IMG/VR virus record: IMGVR_UViG_3300033074_001413
Location: 34,841-98,840 of that record
DNA: 64,000 nt
Reading direction: 5' to 3' (one strand)
DNA from: a virus
Lineage: Duplodnaviria > Caudoviricetes
Shown: positions 4,315 to 36,711 of the stretch, piece after piece
How positions within the stretch are numbered: the stretch's first letter is position 1
How the letters are laid out: each line of letters begins with the position of its first letter
Translations under genes and position numbers: made by a program
The notes under the pieces: model-generated
What the model saw: only the letters and a program-made list of their open reading frames with translations
Told to the model about the DNA's origin: nothing
The model's database searches: none

Positions 4315-4645
4315 TTGCGGGTTTCACTTCACGTATGCTTTAATATACCTATGGATATTAAAGCCATCGCCAAAGAAATCGCTGCCGCGCTTAGCCGGGA
4401 CAGTGTGATCCCTGATACGGACGGGTATCAGGAAGAGGCGGAGCGCATTGCGCTCGAGGTTCTGCAACGGCATGCCTAACCCGCTGATGCTCGTGGGCGC
4501 GTTCGTGTTCTTCATCCTGCTCGATGACCGCGTGGTGCTCGCCTTGAAGTACCTGCTGAAGGACTGGCGCAATAAACTAACCAATTCGGGCTGCTGTTAA
4601 AACGATATCTTGCAGGTTCACTTCACCCTGTGATAAAATCCTAGT

Positions 4646-4840
4646 ATGGTATTCAATACCGAGGACGAAATCCGCGCTTACTACCAGGGTCGCATGGACG
4701 AAGCCGACCGTTGGGCGTACTGGCAGGGCGGCGCAAAGTGGTGTGGCACCTCTGATCGCCGTGCCTTGCAGGACATCCTCGCCGAGCTTACGCTGCAGAT
4801 GGCGCAGTGCCTGGAGCAGTTCCGGAGGCAACACGCATGA
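4646..4840 (+). CDS. Hypothetical protein
   Basis: Leaderless start after TTGCAG-18-TAAAAT. Confidence 0.6.
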   Translation: MVFNTEDEIRAYYQGRMDEADRWAYWQGGAKWCGTSDRRALQDILAELTLQMAQCLEQFRRQHA

Positions 4841-5040
4841 CAGGCCAGGAACTGTACGAGTGGCTCCAGGCGATCCCGGAAGAGGACCGACGCCGCGCAC
4901 GCTGCACGCTCGAAGTAGCTGCCGAACACGAGGATCTGGTCACGGCCAAGATCTACACGGAGGGTGATGGTAAGCGCATTTACCTAATCAACAAGTGAGC
5001 CGCCGCCATTTGAATTAAGATTAGTAGGCTGTTAAAAGAT

Positions 5041-5334
5041 ATGCCGCTCGACAGGCCATCTGCGACACGCGAGGAATCCATCTCGGATCTACACACCGTC
5101 GTATATCTGCTGCAGGGCATAGCCGACCAAATCGAACTCGAAGCCTCCCCATTACCCGCCGATCCGCACAAATCCGACGACTCCTACTACCGCGTCTGGT
5201 CTGCAGTGACCGACGCACGTGCCGCACTGTCCAGTACCGCACGCAGAATACTCGAACTACCCGAGCGTCCGCGCTTGAAGCTGGTCAAGCGCGAAAAACC
5301 CCAACAACGTAGTGGGGTAAATTGGGGCATTTGA
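5041..5334 (+). CDS. Hypothetical protein
   Basis: 97-aa ORF ending within repeat copy 1. Confidence 0.5.
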   Translation: MPLDRPSATREESISDLHTVVYLLQGIADQIELEASPLPADPHKSDDSYYRVWSAVTDARAALSSTARRILELPERPRLKLVKREKPQQRSGVNWGI

Positions 5335-5360
5335 TATCGCATTTTCCGAAGGGTATGGTA
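5293..5360. repeat. Imperfect ~70-bp direct repeat, copy 1
   Basis: Identical core TAGTGGGGTAAATTGGGGCATTTG at 5310-5333 and 6370-6393, with similar flanks. Confidence 0.9.
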
Positions 5361-6351
5361 TGTCGCGTGATGAACTGATCGCACAACTTCAACAGCTTCC
5401 CGAAGGGGAAGTACAGGTGATCGTCAAGGTGTGGTCGCCGCTTGGCGCTGAGTACGACAGGCGTCCAGGAACCATATGGGTCGGAAGCAACGCCGTGGTG
5501 GTGACGCCGAAATGATCAAAGTACTGATACTCGCTCTGCTGTTCATCCTAATATTGAGCGGAAAGGGCGAAGCTCCGCCAAGCACATGACCATAACCGTC
5601 GAGCAGATGTGGTTGATGGCACGAATCTGCCAAAGCCTGATCATTCCGAAGGCATCGATCCGGCACGCGGATAAAATAGTGATTAGTCGACTGCTCGTAA
5701 AAAGGCTAGTTGAGCTGAGGCGTTGGCACGACGGCGATCAGTATGGCCTTACACAAACCGGGTGGGCAGTGGCCGAGCGACACCGGATGGAAGAATGGCC
5801 AATCAAAGGAACATACCGTGACACCACATGAGGTTTTGACCACGCTTTTGGGCGATCTGAGCGCACCGGACTTGGAGAATATGCTTGGTCGGGCGCGGGC
5901 CTTGAATGCCTCTCTTGAGGCGATCATGCGCAACCGCAACTTCAACGAAGTGACCACGGAGGAGCACGTGGTCAACAGTATGGAGATGGTCGCACGCGTG
6001 GGTGTGGCGATCAACGACGTCAAGAAGAAGCGCGAGCACCCCTATGGCTGAGACACTGGCCGAGGCGCTTAAGGCGGAAGAGGCACAACTGTCTTTGAAG
6101 GTGTTGGGGTTGTCGATCCGTGGGCGAACTCTGACATTTGAGGAGGCGCAAGCGGTGTGTAAACGGGCGGAAGAAATTGCCAAGCAAAGCCAAACAGATT
6201 GAACGTTATCAACGCCAAATAGCGACCGACAAGCGCAGCACCCGGCGCACCGCCAAACGTCGTTTAGCTTATTTTGCCCGCTACAAGCGGATGACGATTG
6301 CGGAGTGTAAGAAGTATCTGCTGCGGATCGGATGGAACTGGCGGGAGTTCT

Positions 6352-6425
6352 GAAAAAATCCCCACGACATAGTGGGGTAAATTGGGGCATTTGTAGATCG
6401 ATTTTCCTTGAGGGTATATCTCGCG
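6352..6425. repeat. Imperfect ~70-bp direct repeat, copy 2
   Basis: Same 24-bp core; CCCCAC...GTGGGG hairpin. Confidence 0.9.
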
Positions 6426-6443
6426 CACGACCCCGCAGAGCAA

Positions 6444-6624
6444 TAGAGACCTCCGACACCCGACAGAACACCCGACACCCGACAGAACACCCGACACCTG
6501 ACAGAACAGTAGAGACCTCCGACCAAGGGCCAAACTAGTTTGTTTACGATCCACAAGTTTGGGGGTTTTGGGGTGGGTTTCGGAAATACCCCCTATGGCC
6601 CACCGGGACCCTTCCGGGACCCTT
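6444..6624. repeat. Iteron-like tandem repeats (candidate origin or terminus region)
   Basis: 3 x 19-bp CCGACACCCGACAGAACAC (6453-6509, third copy imperfect); TAGAGACCTCCGAC x2 (6444, 6510); CCGGGACCCTT x2 (6603-6624). Confidence 0.85.
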
Positions 6625-6654
6625 ACGTAAACCGACCCCGCCGTCTACTTCGCG

Positions 6655-7089
6655 TCACCCCGTGTACTTCACTGGGTCCATCATGTTCCCTGCATCCCAT
6701 GCGATCACTTCATCTATCCCATCGAGTCTGTCTATCACGGCATGCAGAGTTGACAGTGCGGCATCTGCATCAACATCCCTCGACTCACTTTCATCCTTCT
6801 GCGCGGCATGTAGATGTTGCAATGCCTTGGCTAGTTCCTTATCCATCGTGGTTACCAAGGTCGGTTCATTGTCGTCCGGATCCTTGTAGATAAGCATTTC
6901 CCTTTGGTTCTTTGGTATTGTGCCTACCGCTTTCTCAACCCGGCTATGCAAATCCCATAACATCTTGAGCATCTGTTCATAATGCGCCTGATTGTAAGTT
7001 CCCATTCGGGACGGGTGAAACATGATCTTATCATGCAGGGAGTAAAGTGGTTTGGTATCCGCTTCGATAAGATACTGTTTGAATGTCAT
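6655..7089 (-). CDS. Putative internal head protein
   Basis: Start MTFKQYLIEA is CTS-like. Confidence 0.65.
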   Translation of the reverse strand: MTFKQYLIEADTKPLYSLHDKIMFHPSRMGTYNQAHYEQMLKMLWDLHSRVEKAVGTIPKNQREMLIYKDPDDNEPTLVTTMDKELAKALQHLHAAQKDESESRDVDADAALSTLHAVIDRLDGIDEVIAWDAGNMMDPVKYTG

Positions 7090-7114
7090 ACTTGTATAAA
7101 GCGACCTAACCCAC

Positions 7115-7144
7115 TTGACAGATTGGGGTCTCATGTGGTACAAT
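7115..7144 (+). promoter_or_regulatory. Strong sigma70-type promoter driving the large ncRNA
   Basis: TTGACA(7115-7120)-18 bp-TGnTACAAT(7139-7144). Confidence 0.8.
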
Positions 7145-7150
7145 GGGTTT

Positions 7151-7817
7151 GTTCGGATGGGGCTGGTAGGGCGAGCTTAAAGCCAAGGCCAGTCGCCATG
7201 AGACACCCGGTGAACGACGGTCGCGAAAGGCGTGCGGCACCGGGATTGATGGTCTAGTTTAATTTCTGGAAAAACGCAGTAGTGTGAACGTCGGGTTCGG
7301 CGTGCAAGGACTCGGCGGCTATTGCATCCTGGGTTCAAGACCAGGGACCATCAACGTGGGAGAGTGTAGGCCAGTTACCGATGGCTACGAGCCGCCGTAT
7401 GGCTCTGCCCTGGCGCAATGGGTCGGGCGGTAGGCGGCATCGGGACAATCGACGGGTCGTACTCAGCGCGGGCGCGGATTGCACATCTCGGCTACCCGCC
7501 ACTTCGATACCGTCCACTCTCCAAACGCAACGCTGCGGCAGGGCGGTGACCCAAGGTCGCTCCGGTGAAAGTCCGGCGAATCAACGGCACTCGTCACGGT
7601 AGAACGTGCACTCCTGCCGCAGCAACACATAGCACAACGGCAGAACCATTACTCGACGGCACCAGAGCATGGGAGGCTCGCAATGACTCCACCGGGCTAG
7701 AAAACCAACCCAAATTAGACAGAAAAATCGCGCCGGAAAGGACACCCCTGGAGATCAACCTCCGGGGGTGATCCGTTTAGGATAATTCCAGGTTTACCCG
7801 AACCTGTGGTAAACTGG
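7151..7817 (+). ncRNA. Large ornate structured RNA with an embedded tRNA-like domain (possibly GOLLD/ROOL-like or a new class)
   Basis: No convincing ORF. Nested helices at 7206-7212/7238-7244, 7246-7254/7346-7354, 7359-7366/7515-7522, 7532-7542/7613-7623 (11 bp perfect) and 7743-7748/7765-7770; D- and T-loop-like motifs. Confidence 0.75.
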
Positions 7818-7824
7818 TTCATAT

Positions 7825-8136
7825 ATGGATATCGATTTCATAGCAGAAGACACCGACGCCGGGTCGGTTTCCATTACGGCAGTTTCATCCAAGGCCTACG
7901 AGAAGTATCCCATGGGCTTCCGGCTGCTGACCCCTCAACAAGCGCAAAAAGAAGCGTCCGATCTACGCGGCAGCGGCTTTACCATCCTGGATCGGACGAG
8001 CGCAACGTTGGGCGCAACGTGCGCGACGGGACCCTACAAACAAGTCCTATGCCATCGTCCTACTCTGCTCATGGACGAACCGTTTGGGGAGATGCAACCC
8101 GAACCAGTCCGGAATATCTACATCGAGGTCAAATGA
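7825..8136 (+). CDS. Hypothetical protein
   Basis: 103-aa ORF following the ncRNA. Confidence 0.5.
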   Translation: MDIDFIAEDTDAGSVSITAVSSKAYEKYPMGFRLLTPQQAQKEASDLRGSGFTILDRTSATLGATCATGPYKQVLCHRPTLLMDEPFGEMQPEPVRNIYIEVK

Positions 8137-8529
8137 ACTGGAAATACTGGCATTCTCATTTCGGGTGTACTCACCCACCGCTCTGCATTCGCTGCACGTG
8201 GTGCGGCTACCGGGCCAACCCGTTGAAGTACTACCCGATTGCCATCCTGCAGATACTCGCGTTCAAGTGCCTGGACCTCCTGGCCTGGATGGAGAAATGG
8301 GACCAGCGATTCGCCTCCAACCAGCGGTAGATCTACTTCGCCCGCTCGCCCGCGATAGAAGTTGGCGAACGCGTCAACCAAACTTCGCGCATCGAATGGT
8401 CGAGCAGATCTCTGCCGGGACAATACCAAATCTCTCCGCGCAACAGTGCATAATCAGCATCATCCAGGCTGAGTACGGTTTGGAGAAGGCGCAGGAGATT
8501 CAAGCTCTGTTCGACACGCTAAACCATAC

Positions 8530-8559
8530 TTGACACGGCAGGTTCACGTATGGTTTAAT
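8530..8559 (+). promoter_or_regulatory. Early promoter, TGGTTTAATGGTT class
   Basis: TTGACA-18-TTTAAT; the same extended motif occurs at 30852-30881(-) and 58854-58883(-). Confidence 0.75.
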
Positions 8560-8771
8560 GGTTGTAATGCAACCCTTCCAATCAATCGCCGAACTCACGC
8601 GCTGGTTCGCCGCGCTGCCCGTGCAGAGTGAAATGAGCGTTCTGCTCGACTTCCGGGATATCGGCATCGGTCTGCAGCGGCGGGAGATTCAGAACCGCAA
8701 TGGCAACTGGGTGATCGGGTTCGGTTCACTGGGCGTGCTGATCTAGCGGCACGGTCAGGTCACGTTCAGTT

Positions 8772-8821
8772 GCCCCCTGCTAGAGGACAGAATAGAGTAG
8801 ATCTGTCTCTCTAGCAGGGGC
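8772..8821. terminator. Long hairpin between convergent transcription units
   Basis: CCCCTGCTAGAG-GACAGA...TCTGTC-T-CTCTAGCAGGGG inverted repeat. Confidence 0.65.
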
Positions 8822-9141
8822 GCTCCCTTTATGATCTCTACGGAGTTTCTAAGGGGTTATATCAGCCTTCTACCGAACAAATCCTGTATTTCTACTCTTT
8901 GTAAACCGAACTCGTCTCCCCGCTCACAGACGCAGTTTACATCTCCTTTTCCGGTGTTGACTCCATCGCTATCTTCAAAATCCCCGTCAAAGGATGAGCG
9001 GTATCCCCACGTACTTCCACTCGTGCCCCACCGAATAGCCGTCTAAACAGATCCTGGCTGTACGGATCGGCAGAGCAGATCGCCTTTGCATCCAACTCCG
9101 GGAAAGGTTTGCGCACCAGTGGCAGCAAAATGGGCGTATCT

Positions 9142-9924
9142 TTATCGTCTTTCACTCAGTATCTGCTCGACTTCCGCCAATTTCACCGCCGCTTCCAACC
9201 CCTCCAGGTTCGTCCCCTCTACCTTGATATTCCTGTCTACCCACACCGTGTAGGTCCCTTGTTGGATGATAACGGAGGTGTTTGCCCTATCCCACTGCTC
9301 TGCGCTGCTGTTCTGGTTGATTTTGAACCCCGCCTGGATTAGTACATCGCGCCACTCCATCGTTTCCTCGAAGTGGTCTAGGCCCTTGGTCACCACCTTG
9401 CCGTCCACCCAGATGGTATAGGTGAAGAAGTCCTTCGGCTTGGAGATGACCACGGCGACGTTGTCCTTCTCCCACTGCTCGTTCGGCCATGCACTCTTCT
9501 CATGCACGACATGGTAGCCCCTCGCGATGAGCACCTCACGCCAGTTTTTCAGCCCGCTATCCTTCCAGTTTAATGTCTCGACCAAGGTGCCCAGGCGGTA
9601 CTTCCACTCGACTTGAGCGGACTCCTTGCGCCACTTGTAGTCAAGCATCAGCGCCGTCCGACAGTCATCCGGCGTGCGGTAAGATTCCTGACTTCCATCT
9701 GGGTAGGTAATGCATGCCCCATCCCCACTGCTGCACTCTATGAAATATCGGACGCGTGCCACTGGTTCGACAATCACGCGTGCCGAATCGGGGTGGAAGG
9801 CTGGATCGGCTTCTAACACCCTAAGTGGGCGCGGACCTTCCGGGAATTCGAGAAACAGCTCGCCAATTTTGGGAATTCTATAGTCCCCGGTTGGCCTGAC
9901 CTCAACGCCTTCCCACGTTAGCAT
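9142..9924 (-). CDS. Hypothetical protein with an internal duplicated domain
   Basis: WREVLIARGY...EQWEKDN...YTIWVDG is repeated as WRDVLIQAGF...EQWDRAN...YTVWVDR. Confidence 0.65.
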   Translation of the reverse strand: MLTWEGVEVRPTGDYRIPKIGELFLEFPEGPRPLRVLEADPAFHPDSARVIVEPVARVRYFIECSSGDGACITYPDGSQESYRTPDDCRTALMLDYKWRKESAQVEWKYRLGTLVETLNWKDSGLKNWREVLIARGYHVVHEKSAWPNEQWEKDNVAVVISKPKDFFTYTIWVDGKVVTKGLDHFEETMEWRDVLIQAGFKINQNSSAEQWDRANTSVIIQQGTYTVWVDRNIKVEGTNLEGLEAAVKLAEVEQILSERR

Positions 9925-12594: not shown

Positions 12595-13740
12595 TCAATG
12601 TGCGACATTAACACGTTTCCACTTCCTACCGACGCGAATGGTGGATTTACCGACGAGTTTTGGTACACCGGATATGCGGCAATCGTCTATCTCAACCGCA
12701 CCAGCCTTGATAAGACGTTGGGCTTCGGTATTTGACGACGCCATGCCAGCCGCGACCATTACACGATCAAGACGGTCCTCCTGGACGGAGACCTCCTCAA
12801 TGTCCGTTGGCTTTTCACCACGCGTGAATTGCTTCTCCCATTCTTCCTGTGCGATGTCCGCTGATTGACGGTCATGGAGCCATTCGACAATCCTCCATGC
12901 CAGTTCGAGCTTACATATCCTTCTATCCAGGTCTGGGCTAGCCGGATTGATGAATACCTCCGGGAACAGTGTCCCCCACCAACGAAACATCAGCGCGTCG
13001 GAAATGCTCATTACCTTGCTGAACATCTCGAACGGTGCTTCATTCAGCGCGATGTGGTTGCCAAGCGACTTGGACATCTTCTGGACGCCGTCAAGCCCCT
13101 CGAGCAACGGGACTGTGGCAATAACCTGAGGCTTGGCTTTGCGTAGGCGCATGTACTCACGCCCGATCATCAGGTTGAATAGCTGGTCGGTGCCGCCAAG
13201 CTCGATGTCCACGCTCTCAATATGCGAGTCGTAGGCTTGCAGAAGTGGGTATACCAGTTCATGCAGGTGGATTGGGGATTGGTCTGCGAACCGCTTCTTG
13301 AAATCGTCGCGTGCCATGATCTGCTGGAGCGTAAAGCTCGACAATAGACGAATCACGTCCGCGAAGGAAAACTTATCGAACCATTTGTTGTTCTCATGGA
13401 CGCAGGTCTTGTCCTTATCCAGGATCTTGTAGACCTGATCCAGGTACGTAAGGGCATTCCGGCTGATGATGACCTCGTCTAAAGCGGGACGTAGGGAGTT
13501 GCGGCCAGTCGGATCACCGATTGCTGCAGTGGCAGTGCCGACGATCATCATCACGGTGTGACCGTGGTCCTGGAACGTACGAAGGGTTTTGAGCAGGACG
13601 GCGTGGCCGAGATGGAGGTCTGGTGCAGTTGGATCGAACCCGGCTTTCACACGCAGTGGCTTTCCACTCGCGATCAACGCGTCGAATTCTTTCTCATCCA
13701 CAACCTGTACGAATCTGTCACGCAGCTCCATGCCATTCAC
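12595..13740 (-). CDS. tyrS: Tyrosyl-tRNA synthetase
   Basis: GFDPTAPDLHLGH (HIGH), IGDPTG, YPLLQAYD, GGTDQ, KMSKS, C-terminal S4-like domain. Confidence 0.97.
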   Translation of the reverse strand: MNGMELRDRFVQVVDEKEFDALIASGKPLRVKAGFDPTAPDLHLGHAVLLKTLRTFQDHGHTVMMIVGTATAAIGDPTGRNSLRPALDEVIISRNALTYLDQVYKILDKDKTCVHENNKWFDKFSFADVIRLLSSFTLQQIMARDDFKKRFADQSPIHLHELVYPLLQAYDSHIESVDIELGGTDQLFNLMIGREYMRLRKAKPQVIATVPLLEGLDGVQKMSKSLGNHIALNEAPFEMFSKVMSISDALMFRWWGTLFPEVFINPASPDLDRRICKLELAWRIVEWLHDRQSADIAQEEWEKQFTRGEKPTDIEEVSVQEDRLDRVMVAAGMASSNTEAQRLIKAGAVEIDDCRISGVPKLVGKSTIRVGRKWKRVNVAH

Positions 13741-25400: not shown

Positions 25401-28400
25401 GTTCAATCTATCAACCACGTTCAACACTAACCGGGTTACCGGAGCAGTGGCAACTGGTCCAGCCATCATCCCAACCGGAGCGTTTGTTGGAGGTGGTGCA
25501 CCAACTACCGTGGTAATGGGTACAGAGACGACCATTGATGGCGTCAATCCAGCTACGACACTATTCAGAACCAACACTACTGGCGGAGACCGTGGAGTAG
25601 CTCCTATCGCACCGACACCTCCAACGGTGGCAAGTGATCTGTTGTCCATTCAGACCTCTCTACAGAAGATTTTAGAGGCGTATGGGAAGGATCCAACGGC
25701 GTTGCTTGGTGCTGGACACCAAGTGGGCGTTCCATACTACGTCAGTGAGTTAGGCAAGAATTACACAGTGGTAGGATACACTTCAACGTGGCAACCGATT
25801 GTTATTGTCCCACGTTCGGATGCTAGCAAATATGCTACTGATGTATACTCTATCAGTCTATCCACTGGCGCTCTAGCCTATATCGTCAACGACGAAGGAT
25901 ACGCAATATTCAAGCAGCAGCAAAGTGGCACCGCCATGATGATGCCTGGAGTGCAGATCACATGGCTTGGTGGTACAACCGGACGCAACGACACGCTAGT
26001 GCGCATATTCCAGCCAGGGGCGGCTACAACAGTAACAACTGGTGTGGTGGCCACTGCGTCTACGGCACTAACGTCGAATCAACTCAACGATGCCCGCGCC
26101 GTCATCATGGCCAACCCAGGTATTCTACTTCAGATTTCTGGGCTAACCAATGAGGAACAACATGTTAGCTCGGTCACGGAGATCAACAATCTCCTGGTCG
26201 CCAAGCCAGAGGTAGCAAGCGCTGTACTGTCAGGCAGGACTGATACATCCACAAGCAGCATCACGACGTCAGTTCAGAGTGGCTCCGCCAGATTCCAAAT
26301 GCTGGATGACCCAATCAGAATTGATCCGGCCACTTACAGCCTCAGCCAGTCCACTCTGGCTCCAACGGCAACCATTCCGACAGGTACGGCGTTCGGTAAT
26401 GAACCGAAATATGGCGACCCTCTCTACACCAACGGGGTTGGTACAGTAACTGGGGAATTCTGGATTCCTAACACAGATGCTATCCACTTCCGTGTTGGTC
26501 GGAGATTGTTCCGCCTCACCAGTAGCCCGAATAACAACAAGAACGCTGAGACGTGGGCTGACGCCGTGTACTCAGCGCAGGGTACGCTATACACCAATCA
26601 GCGGACAGTAACTAGCATTCGTGAGCCACACTACGTCGTCGAGAACCTGTACGACTCCGCAAGCTATACCGAGACACAAACCGACCTTCGATTCGAGTCA
26701 CAGTCCTGGGATGAACCAGCTCCTCAACCAATCGAGCCTCCAGCACCAGTCGTTATTGACCATAATCCGACTCCTGTGATTACGGAAGCGACCAGGACCA
26801 CGACGGAAGCAACTAGAACTACTACAGAGGTAGCTCCGCCAGCAACCGAGCCAGAGCCTCCGGTGTTTGAGCCACCAATAGAAGAGCCACCTCCACCAGC
26901 GCCAGACCCACCACCTCCAGTGGTGTTGAGTGTGACGACCACAACCACGTCCACGTCAACTTGGTTCGACCCATTAGCTGAGACATTCCTGGTGGACACC
27001 AAGGGTGGGTACTTCCTGTCGAAGATTGACTTGTTCTTCGCGAGTATCGATCCACGCATGCCAGTGACCGTCCAAATCAGAACGACCGTAAACGGGTACC
27101 CAAGCAAGAAGGTTCTACCGTTCGCCGAGAAGACCATGTACCCAGAGACCGGGGCGATCAAGGTGAGCGATGATGGTAGCATTCCGACCACATTCGAGTT
27201 CCCAGTTCCAGTATATCTGGAAGAGAACCAGGAATACGCCTTCGTGGTGATGGCCAACACCAACAACTACCTGCTGCACACAGCAAGAATGGGTGAACGA
27301 GCGTTCACAACTGGTGCGGTTGTCAATCAGCAACCATACGCTGGTGTTATGTTCAAGAGCCAGAATGCCAGTACCTGGAGTGCTGACCAACTCGAAGATA
27401 TAAAGTTCACGATATACAGAGCCAAATTCGATGTATCGTCCCAGGCCACAGTATACTTCCGCAATAAGGATCTCGATACTGTAGTGCTTGGAAACAACCC
27501 ATTCCATACCGCACAAGGTAGCGACATCGTTCGTGTCCTACACAGCGATAATGGAATGGTCCGCAGCAATGACAAAGGAAGCGTCGTTACCATCGGGCAT
27601 GTCCAGGATGCTCCTATCAACGGAATCCCGGCTGCGGCCTTGGTCGGCGACTTCACGGTGGAGTCCGTTGATCTGGACGCCTACACCATCAAGGCCAATC
27701 TAGCGGGAGATTTCGACAAGGCAACCATTAGCAATGGTATATCCGGTCCATCGTTGGTAGAGGTCAGCAGGGAGTTCCAATACAACCTGATGCACCCAAC
27801 GTTCGGTACCATGATTATGCCTGGAACCGGAATAAGCTGGTTCGCACGCACCATTAGCGGTAAGGCAGTTCATAACAATGAGCTGGCCACACAAACACCA
27901 TTCCAGAAGAGTGATTTCGTGGCCATTGTGCCGAACACCAACATTGAGTATAGCGTTCCACAAATGATCGCTACTACCAAGACAGAGACACTGAATGTGG
28001 TTGGCAACAGTCCGTTCGATAGAAGATCACTTCTATTCCGTGCCGTGATGTTCACCACACAGGACAACTTGACACCAATGGTTGACCTGCAGAGAATGAG
28101 CGCAATTGTTGTCCACAACAGGTTGGATGATCCAAACTTCAACAACCAAACGTTACCACTACACGACAAGGGAGTGACATTTACCGCCACCTCCGATGAG
28201 TTCATTGAGTTCGGTGGATATGACCATCTGGAAGTAACCGGAGTAGCAGAGAGCGGTGGAGCTACCAGTATCAATATCGGTAGCCTCGGTGTAGAGATTG
28301 ACGACTACTATGTGAACATGTCGGTGAAGGTGATTGCCGGAAGCGGCCAGGGTGAAGAGAAAATCATCACCGCTTACAGTGCACTAACTCGTGACGCCAC

Positions 28401-36316: not shown

Positions 36317-36391
36317 TGGAGCCGGGGGCGAGAATCGAACTCGCGATTAGAGGTTTTGCAGACCTTTACCTTACCACTTGGCTACCCCGGC
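36317..36391 (-). tRNA. tRNA-Cys(GCA) copy 2
   Basis: Cloverleaf; anticodon loop CU-GCA-AA; U73; encoded CCA. Confidence 0.92.
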
Positions 36392-36396
36392 TTGTT

Positions 36397-36471
36397 TGGT
36401 GGGCCTGGATGGACTTGAACCATCTTCATGTGATTAAAAGTCACATGCTTCACCATAAAAGCTTCAGGCCC
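36397..36471 (-). tRNA. tRNA-Lys(UUU) copy 2 (atypical A8/U14)
   Basis: UGUGA-CUUUUAA-UCACA; GGUUCAAGUCC; CCA. Confidence 0.88.
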
Positions 36472-36473
36472 TT

Positions 36474-36550
36474 TGGAGCCGGGAGTGGGATTTGAACCCA
36501 CGATTAGCGGATTTGCAGTCCGCCGCCTTACCAGACTTGGCTATCCCGGC
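36474..36550 (-). tRNA. tRNA-Cys(GCA) copy 1
   Basis: GCGGA-CUGCAAA-UCCGC; U73; CCA. Confidence 0.94.
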
Positions 36551-36551
36551 T

Positions 36552-36628
36552 TGGTGGCCCCAGAGGGATTCGAACCCTCGACTCTCTGGTTAAAAGCCAG
36601 ATACTCTAAACCGCTGAGTTATGGGGCT
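36552..36628 (-). tRNA. tRNA-Lys(UUU) copy 1
   Basis: UCUGG-CUUUUAA-CCAGA; CCA; apparent A1:C72 mismatch. Confidence 0.92.
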
Positions 36629-36635
36629 AGAAACT

Positions 36636-36711
36636 TGGTGGGCCTGGAAGGACTTGAACCTTCAACTCCCTGCTTAAGAGGCAGGTACTCTGACCATTGA
36701 GTTACAGACCC
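36636..36711 (-). tRNA. tRNA-Lys(CUU)
   Basis: CCUGC-CUCUUAA-GCAGG; CCA. Confidence 0.94.

Follow-up and report, generated by a model that had tools for sequence, protein, structure and literature searches.

A gene-free stretch of some 670 nt, lying behind a strong promoter in the genome of an uncultured giant phage from wastewater, raises the question whether it is transcribed into a large structured RNA and, if so, whether such an RNA belongs to a described family. The sequence analysed, hereafter the window, is 64,000 nt long and corresponds to bases 34841-98840 of a 98,840-bp IMG/VR viral contig, estimated to be 55% complete; positions refer to the window unless the contig is indicated. 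The original prediction, which proposed a structured phage RNA at positions 7151-7817, is confirmed as an observation and partly supported as an interpretation. It appears fairly probable, although well short of certain, that a stand-alone gene occupies the segment from 7151 to about 7775 and specifies a stable non-coding RNA with several domains, some 625 nt in length, which falls into no described family.

The source phage and the surroundings of the locus

The phage encodes two giant structural proteins (4270 and 2236 aa), a tyrosyl-tRNA synthetase (TyrRS; 12595-13740, minus strand) and a class II nucleotidyltransferase of the CCA-adding type (contig positions 4486-5679). Eight tRNA genes are found in the contig, all with an encoded CCA, including the seven out of seven checked within the window. 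The nearest relative retrieved is phage G001 (405,631 bp), which carries 44 tRNAs and a permuted tmRNA and has about 45 proteins in common with the phage, at 30-60% identity; a neck/baseplate-type protein places both among the T4-like phages.

The genes neighboring the RNA region are all ORFans, and gene context is therefore uninformative on the function of the RNA. A search for relatives of the proteins encoded at 6655-7089 and 7825-8136 found none, two loci which had seemed to contain them being discarded as spurious. For the protein encoded by the minus-strand gene 9142-9924, no relatives were found in IMG/VR, and those found elsewhere have just a 50-aa domain in common with it. A second structured RNA, considered at 8534-9141, was also rejected: the low energy of this segment is due to one palindromic terminator, and a leaderless 62-aa ORF is located at its start.

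Promoter, coding potential and borders

The consensus promoter described upstream of the locus is indeed present (Table 1). It is part of a family represented in the contig by 32 matches to TTGAC-N16-19-TAnnnT; in 14 of them, a start codon follows within 4-9 nt and opens a leaderless ORF of 59-549 aa, and several members share an extended TGTGGTA motif. The promoter at the locus ranks among the best matches of the family, yet the best ORF to follow it has 7 aa. The longest ORF starting with ATG, GTG or TTG inside 7151-7817 encodes 73 arginine-rich aa, and an open pseudo-frame of 104 aa, queried as a protein, retrieved no relatives. A gene hidden in another genetic code was discarded as well, with stops occurring in all frames and no suppressor tRNA reported by ARAGORN. 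The region contains no plausible gene, as originally stated, and is GC-rich (G+C of 0.60-0.64, vs about 0.54 nearby); the contig has 16 gaps free of ORFs, and the one in which the region lies has the highest G+C (0.59).

The RNA region is placed between a divergent promoter pair and the promoter of the next gene, and its 3' border had to be revised. The RNA had been drawn through 7817, but its 3' end is probably located at the hairpin 7740-7774, which resembles the palindromic hairpin 8775-8822, found between the plus-strand ORF 8558-8746 and the minus-strand gene 9142-9924, in having a long GC-rich stem and a short U run. The hairpin 7740-7774 fails a simple U-tract terminator rule, and no canonical U-tract terminator is found on the plus strand. 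The following hairpin, 7788-7817, overlaps the element TGTGGTAAACT and is for this reason more likely to be a DNA promoter than RNA: TGTGGTAAACT is located 9 nt before the ATG at 7825, and both its TGTGGTA motif and its -10-to-start spacing are those of the leaderless promoter family. The hairpin is thus probably the promoter of the next gene and not part of the RNA. With the RNA probably ending at 7740-7774, the pairing suggested between the 5' GUUCGG and the loop of the last hairpin becomes unlikely, that hairpin being probably outside the RNA.

Table 1. Features of the RNA region and sequences matching it, with positions in the window
Feature	Position	Strand	Evidence
Sigma-70-type promoter, TTGACA-18-(TGTGG)TACAAT	7115-7144	+	11/12 matches plus upstream TG; predicted start near 7151
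5' module, two hairpins (7157-7199; 7206-7244)	7151-7245	+	MFE -41.9 kcal/mol; z -2.97; 0/200 shuffles as good; mean pair probability 0.89
tRNA-like module	7246-7354	+	z -4.59 (cut at 7246-7356); 0/200 shuffles; pair probability 0.94
Multibranch domain closed by GGAGAGUG/CACUCUCC	7355-7527	+	MFE -78.1 kcal/mol; z -2.69; 1/200 shuffles; pair probability 0.92
Three-way domain, 11/12-bp closing helix 7532-7543/7612-7623	7528-7627	+	z -3.22 for 7532-7623
Unstructured A/C-rich linker or tail	7624-7742	+	z +0.80; 163/200 shuffles fold as well; AT skew +0.33
14-bp GC-rich hairpin, probable terminator or 3'-end stabiliser	7740-7774	+	pair probability 1.00
Boundary outside the RNA: extended -10 element TGTGGTAAACT (7805-7815) and ATG 7825 of the leaderless next gene	7805-7827	+	
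Run X3 (two contigs), RNA library	7165-7535 and 7575-7735 (371 and 161 nt)		100% identity
Run X4, RNA library	7170-7644 (475 nt)		100% identity
Run X7, activated-sludge RNA library of a different study	7304-7459		8 substitutions; about 94% identical
Run X6, wastewater, library type unrecorded (probably DNA)	7313-7659		10 substitutions; 27 gap letters; about 90% identical

Predicted fold of the RNA

The sequence contains all the helices named in the original prediction, and the ViennaRNA folds reproduce them. Each module was compared with 200 dinucleotide shuffles, and the z-scores in Table 1 refer to borders which were picked after the fold had been seen. Five modules each beat at least 199 of the 200 shuffles, with pair probabilities of 0.79-1.00. 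The 5' module includes the helix 7206-7212/7238-7244. The multibranch domain is predicted to be closed by the helix GGAGAGTG/CACTCTCC (7359-7366/7515-7522) and to carry three arms (7369-7386, 7388-7442 and 7451-7514), with inner GCCGCC/GGCGGC, GACGG/CCGTC and GCGGG/CCCGC helices. In the three-way domain, the segments 7532-7542 and 7613-7623 form an inverted repeat (I4) of 11 bp, 100% complementary, and a CCGG-TGAAAGT-CCGG hairpin is located at 7562-7576. The statement that the region folds almost end to end is valid for the modules covering 7151-7623 and for the hairpin 7740-7774, but not for the A/C-rich segment between them. A 3' segment cut at 7736-7820 scores z -4.16.

G.U pairs account for 19 of the 163 predicted pairs, on the basis of which the fold is assigned to the plus strand; over the whole stretch, the z-score is -3.67 for the plus strand vs -2.19 for the minus strand. 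As a reference, 200-nt windows were scanned blindly along the plus strand of the first 46 kb or so of the 98.8-kb contig, with 12 shuffles per window: 7% of them reach z<=-3, and within the RNA region just the window 7161-7360 stands out. Folding energy is therefore not decisive by itself, and the predicted thermodynamics supports a structured RNA without proving it.

Two 9-nt loops are complementary over 6 nt (GUGCAA, 7302-7307, and UUGCAC, 7479-7484); by a rough count, such a match has a chance probability of about 0.2 among about ten loops, and it is taken as a lead only.

The tRNA-like module

The module with the lowest z-score in Table 1 is predicted to form 34 pairs, six of them G.U. It is composed of a 9-bp acceptor-like stem, directly stacked on a 5-bp T-stem with the loop GUUCAAGA, of a D region reduced to a weak 3-bp hairpin with UGG and, replacing the anticodon arm, of an arm of 18 bp, five of them G.U, capped by the 9-nt loop GGCGUGCAA. 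The coaxial acceptor/T stack would thus measure 14 bp vs the canonical 12 bp, and the T-loop 8 nt. The module has no encoded CCA, unlike the real tRNAs of the phage, whose genes are at least 29 kb away in the contig, and its 9-nt loop on an 18-bp stem contrasts with the 7-nt anticodon loop expected for the tRNA family (RF00005). Neither ARAGORN nor the Rfam tRNA and tmRNA models call it; a tmRNA or an intron-bearing tRNA was also discarded, relaxed ARAGORN thresholds giving only noise. Positions 7313-7354 are identical in both related sequences, X6 and X7, described in the following section.

Presence in RNA libraries and pattern of conservation

A word index revealed the RNA stretch in eight public runs from five studies; of the sampled words, 40-66% are present in three metatranscriptome libraries, all from one study. 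Contigs from four runs are reported in Table 1. Those of X3 and X4, three in number, are entirely contained in 7165-7735. Such contigs carry no information on strand, ends or level, and RNA libraries can hold DNA: all they document is that the sequence occurs in RNA libraries and continues across the tRNA-like module at either border. To this extent, the postulated RNA is present in such libraries. The flanks (5500-7107 and 7778-9500) are covered by no contig from the four runs, and this uncovered part proves nothing. At most, a start near 7151 is weakly suggested by the positions, 7165 and 7170, at which one contig of X3 and that of X4, both libraries of the same study, begin.

The two diverged sequences, X7 and X6, differ from the phage in a markedly uneven manner. 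Blocks of 56-89 nt are without change, namely 7304-7392 in X7 and 7313-7388, 7390-7445 and 7484-7548 in X6; next to them, hairpins are about 20% different, with clustered substitutions and indels of 1-4 nt. Seven of the eight changes of X7 fall within 7393-7424, clustered at the tip of the 7388-7442 arm, while the block 7425-7445 of the multibranch domain is unchanged. In X6, changes are found within 7549-7605, with deletions of 1, 2, 3 and 4 nt; the segment 7561-7605 is about 21 nt shorter, and 7606-7659 is without listed difference. Indels of 1, 2 and 4 nt break every reading frame, which marks the conservation as non-coding. Unchanged blocks beside diverged, indel-bearing hairpins are not how coding sequence evolves; the relatives display an RNA-type mosaic rather than the codon-type conservation which, by the original prediction, would count against the RNA. 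The CCGG-flanked hairpin at 7562-7576, which had been likened to a T-loop, is present in the phage, but it is substituted and cut by deletions in the relative about 90% identical, and is accordingly regarded as a peripheral element.

Covariation was tallied from these two short relatives, using difference tables only, and the tally includes one clean compensatory pair and several broken ones. The compensatory change is A7549G with U7557C, by which an A-U pair becomes G-C and is kept. In addition, a mismatch is replaced by a pair through U7406A with C7424U, and a G.U by a G-C through U7423C; in X7, the helix 7402-7428 carries five changes but still has 8 of its 9 pairs. Predicted pairs are broken by C7393G, by C7408A with G7422A, by G7389A and by G7555A. 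Some indels are not listed, so that pairing registers in the relatives are uncertain. The fold is accordingly given as a predicted one, and not as 'ornate' in the strict sense of a structure that covariation has demonstrated.

Searches for known families and for homologues

When the window was compared with Rfam 15, only the seven tRNAs matched at the gathering score. For positions 7050-7900, a search at E<=10 produced four chance-level matches, none of them to GOLLD, ROOL, OLE, RNase P, tmRNA or group I/II introns, the families against which a check had been proposed; in particular, the covariance models of GOLLD (RF01998) and ROOL (RF03087) gave no match at either the gathering score or E<=10. 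Similarly, ARAGORN makes no call in the RNA region at normal thresholds. As a control, the same tools, Rfam and ARAGORN, do recover the genuine permuted tmRNA of G001. Bacterial RNase P RNA (RF00010/RF00011) was discarded, since no model matches and the segment resembling its CR-I motif, 7563-7575, is altered and deletion-cut in X6; group I and group II introns were also discarded, as no model matches and the region is not within a gene.

Homologues of the RNA were found neither by blastn against 50,697 phage records nor by exact scans with the conserved blocks in IMG/VR, JGI metagenomes and GTDB genomes. One match from IMG/VR turned out to be a bare 19-mer with dissimilar flanks, and was attributed to chance. 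Loci collected from IMG/VR and JGI by using TyrRS as an anchor contain no copy detectable by nhmmer. The whole G001 genome and 36 further T4-like phage records, scanned by DNA search and with R1, a covariance model of the tRNA-like module, also contain no detectable copy; this empty result shows little, and would point to a narrow distribution. R1 matches neither the rnaC locus of T4 nor any relative searched, and a single match to it (E 0.99) was rejected because it falls within a bacterial coding region.

Alternative explanations

Among the competing explanations, all of them less than likely, the first is that the locus produces a polycistronic precursor, in which the tRNA-like module would be the cut signal for RNase P and the 3' trimming enzymes, and three pieces would act separately, the 5' one about 97 nt long, the mimic 106 nt and the 3' one about 420 nt; tRNA punctuation and the t-elements of plant mitochondria are parallels. 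The minimal feature recognised by RNase P is an acceptor/T-arm minihelix, and this is present in the module, which is, in addition, placed exactly between independently folding domains. A CCA-adding-type enzyme is encoded by the phage, and a tRNA-like stable RNA, species 1 RNA, is known from the tRNA cluster of T4. Uncut molecules do exist, however, since the contigs 7165-7535 and 7170-7644 cross both borders of the module, and the long coaxial stack and 8-nt T-loop deviate from the canonical substrate. Altogether, a precursor of this kind appears unlikely.

It is decidedly unlikely that the sequence acts as a long structured 5' leader, regulating the genes from 7825 on. In its favour, the next ORFs are on the same strand, and the plus strand lacks a canonical U-tract terminator; but the next gene is preceded by an extended -10 of its own, TGTGGTAAACT, in the usual leaderless layout, a hairpin of the terminator type used by the phage precedes it at 7740-7774, and a 670-nt leader would be exceptional in a phage whose genes are typically leaderless.

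Little credence is given to a primer transcript of a replication origin, comparable to ColE1 RNA II or to the T4 origin transcripts. The notion derives from the repeats found 500-700 bp upstream of the RNA, which resemble an iteron array: a 19-bp unit repeated 2.9 times (6453-6508, 97% matches) and, in the same zone extending to 6624, a 22-mer and an 11-bp unit, each present twice. The GC skew changes sign across the RNA region, and the shared proteins mark the phage as T4-like. Against this, the repeats are all upstream, with a divergent gene between them and the RNA, the RNA ends in a hairpin and has an A/C-rich, not G-rich, 3' part, and priming would not call for a tRNA mimic joined to a conserved multi-junction core.

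Just as little credence is given to a non-functional spacer or a decayed gene following the promoter, folding only through its GC-richness. Comparable z-scores are indeed reached elsewhere in the genome, covariation is unproven and the searches found no distant homologues; but blocks of 56-89 nt are unchanged in the relatives, beside hairpins about 20% different and rich in indels. The region is, moreover, present in RNA libraries of two studies, it has the highest G+C among the ORF-free gaps, and its pseudo-ORF has no protein relatives.

Finally, GGUGAAAGUCCGG and ACAGAAAAAUCG resemble the CR-I and CR-V motifs, respectively, of RNase P RNA, a likeness treated as a lead only. A very divergent RNase P RNA, tmRNA or group I/II intron, missed by the covariance models, is nevertheless hardly credible: beyond this likeness, it could appeal to the resemblance of the module to the tRNA-like domain of tmRNA and to the permuted tmRNA of G001, but no such model matches at E<=10, the CR-I-like hairpin, substituted and deletion-cut in X6, is unfit for a catalytic core, the module is closed on itself, with no tag frame, G3.U70 or CCA, and the region is outside any gene, unlike an intron.

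A model for a probable stand-alone RNA

The stand-alone non-coding RNA is therefore retained as the best explanation, and from the features reported we infer its exact ends, any processing, its partner and its function as follows. The host RNA polymerase would start at the strong sigma-70-type promoter and stop at the GC-rich hairpin. The transcript would be organised, in order, as two 5' hairpins, an anticodon-less tRNA mimic, two multi-junction domains and an A/C-rich tail; the mimic would consist of an acceptor/T-arm minihelix and a long closed arm, the junction domains would be conserved with variable tips, and the tail would be single-stranded. The mimic may engage RNase P, 3' trimming enzymes, the CCA-adding-type enzyme of the phage and T-loop binders, and this engagement may mature, stabilise or tether the RNA. 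The real activity would be carried by the conserved junction core (7355-7623) together with the open tail, and may consist in binding a protein or RNA partner or in self-assembly similar to that of GOLLD and ROOL.

A bolder and only tentative proposal is that this RNA is the first representative of a new class of large RNAs in phages, in which the mimic is matured by the phage CCA-adding enzyme, is perhaps charged by the phage TyrRS, and either tethers the core and tail to the tRNA and translation machinery of the host or nucleates an RNA-only assembly comparable to the nanocages of GOLLD and ROOL.

Few products of microbial genomes are as poorly understood as the large structured RNAs of phages, such as GOLLD and ROOL, and every additional family offers a point of comparison. 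The present locus has features on which testable hypotheses can be built: a clean promoter-to-hairpin unit, evidence of presence in environmental RNA and a mimic with neither anticodon nor CCA, occurring in a phage that itself encodes a CCA-adding-type enzyme, a TyrRS and tRNAs. Should these enzymes accept the mimic as a substrate, the 'translation toolkits' of giant phages would be tied to the biology of non-coding RNAs; otherwise, the RNA would still offer a compact candidate for structural work.

Comparison with known systems

YrlA, the Y RNA partner of Ro60/Rsr found in bacteria and phages, is a modular non-coding RNA with a tRNA mimic recognised by tRNA enzymes. Its topology is opposite to that of the module described here, the ends of YrlA being at the place of the anticodon stem; no genes for TROVE/Ro60 or RtcB were found in the contig, 55% complete, and Rfam detects no YrlA match.

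The tRNA-like domain of tmRNA shares with the module an acceptor stem, a T-arm and a long helix in place of the anticodon arm; the D-loop analogue with G and no real D stem, UUUCUGGAAAAAC in the module, also corresponds to the tmRNA consensus. In the module, however, the long helix ends in a loop and does not continue into a tag-coding region. G3.U70, an encoded CCA and a credible tag frame are all absent from it, the Rfam tmRNA models, RF04321 among others, remain silent, and the contig, at its estimated 55% completeness, contains no SmpB gene.

The species 1 RNA of T4 (rnaC, AF158101 70908-71046) is a stable RNA with a T-arm, GGGUUCGAAUCCC, adjoining its paired 5' and 3' ends and, like the module, has long hairpins where the anticodon region would be. 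It is, however, a free RNA of 139 nt within a tRNA cluster, whereas the mimic makes up one module within a transcript about 625 nt long. Homology with rnaC is not supported, since it is missed by the covariance model of the module.

The closest parallel is with GOLLD and ROOL, which are large (0.6-0.8 kb), multi-domain, phage-encoded and tRNA-associated non-coding RNAs; both have a disordered linker and kissing loops, and the GOLLD linker sometimes contains a tRNA (10.1101/2024.12.08.627333). The phage RNA described here differs from them in its location, at least 29 kb from tRNA genes, and in that the embedded element is a mimic and not a real tRNA. In line with them, it embeds a tRNA-like module and includes an unstructured linker, and two of its loops, each of 9 nt, are complementary over 6 nt. 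Its kind is already known, that of large structured phage RNAs tied to tRNA biology, while its sequence and architecture match no described family; it is probably a large phage non-coding RNA of the GOLLD/ROOL kind, and a new one.

Repeated and complementary elements within the RNA

The word YCGGUGA (direct-repeat family D3) opens three hairpins of the RNA, which look as if they had been assembled from one recurring building block. In the terminator-type hairpin, the 3' strand GGGGGUGAUCC (window 7764-7774) is complementary over 11 bp, including one G.U pair, to GGAUCACCUCC, the near-universal 3' tail of 16S rRNA. No start codon follows GGGGGUGAUCC; the match could be due to chance, or could correspond to a masked anti-SD-binding site.

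Other elements of the contig

The features are reported below, with positions relative to the window, the whole contig (G000), the nearest retrievable relative (G001, a 405-kb phage) or loci of these two (L126 and L017, respectively).

Location of the features described in this section
Feature	Location	Strand	Remarks
YCGGUGA-starting hairpins	window 7207-7223, 7543-7559, 7562-7578		direct-repeat family D3
Iteron-like array	window 6436-6624		19-bp tandem, duplicated 22-mer, 11-bp tandem
TTGACA promoter with extended -10, leaderless 62-aa ORF (8558-8746), palindromic hairpin (8775-8822)	window 8531-8822
260-aa protein, N-terminal ~50 aa	window 9760-9924	minus	TGEYRxPxxGELFLExPxGxRPLRVLE
tRNA cluster	window 36317-36711		only Lys and Cys, alternating order
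Second 'orphan' promoter, TTGACC-18-TGTGGTATTCT	G000 27240-27269 (window -7600 to -7571)
Class II nucleotidyltransferase	G000 4486-5679 (window -30354 to -29161; L126:1447-2640)
Permuted (two-piece) tmRNA	G001 (IMGVR_UViG_3300050821_002957) 183192-183533; L017:5023-5242		RF04321, 93.5 bits

The iteron-like array, bordered on both sides by convergent genes, could be an origin or a site for protein binding. It contains 2.9 copies of a 19-bp unit (6453-6508, 97% matches), flanked by the duplicated 22-mer (6436 and 6502), and two copies of an 11-bp unit (6603-6624). The palindromic hairpin behind the 62-aa ORF, 48 nt long and near-perfect, is probably a bidirectional terminator, and among the 200-nt windows of the scanned part of the contig its region ranks in the top two for stability. 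The conserved segment of the 260-aa protein is a small domain, also found in four otherwise unrelated metagenomic proteins (62-415 aa). No ORF lies behind the second orphan promoter, which opens a 466-bp ORF-free gap, with the next leaderless promoter ~190 nt downstream, and may drive a small RNA.

Translation-related genes

The tRNA cluster is composed of Lys UUU (two copies), Lys CUU and Cys GCA (two copies), all with encoded CCA; the redundant tRNA-Lys genes may serve to counter anticodon nucleases of the host. The nucleotidyltransferase, preceded by a leaderless promoter (TTGACA-18-TGTGGTAAAAT), is closest to CCA tRNA nucleotidyltransferase, although its score of 245 bits falls short of the equivalog cut-off (290). 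Its homologue in G001 is 39% identical. The TyrRS enzymes of the two phages share 57% identity. G001 also carries 44 tRNAs, tRNA-Tyr among them, and a permuted tmRNA, whose tag is ANAPAFAFAAAA.
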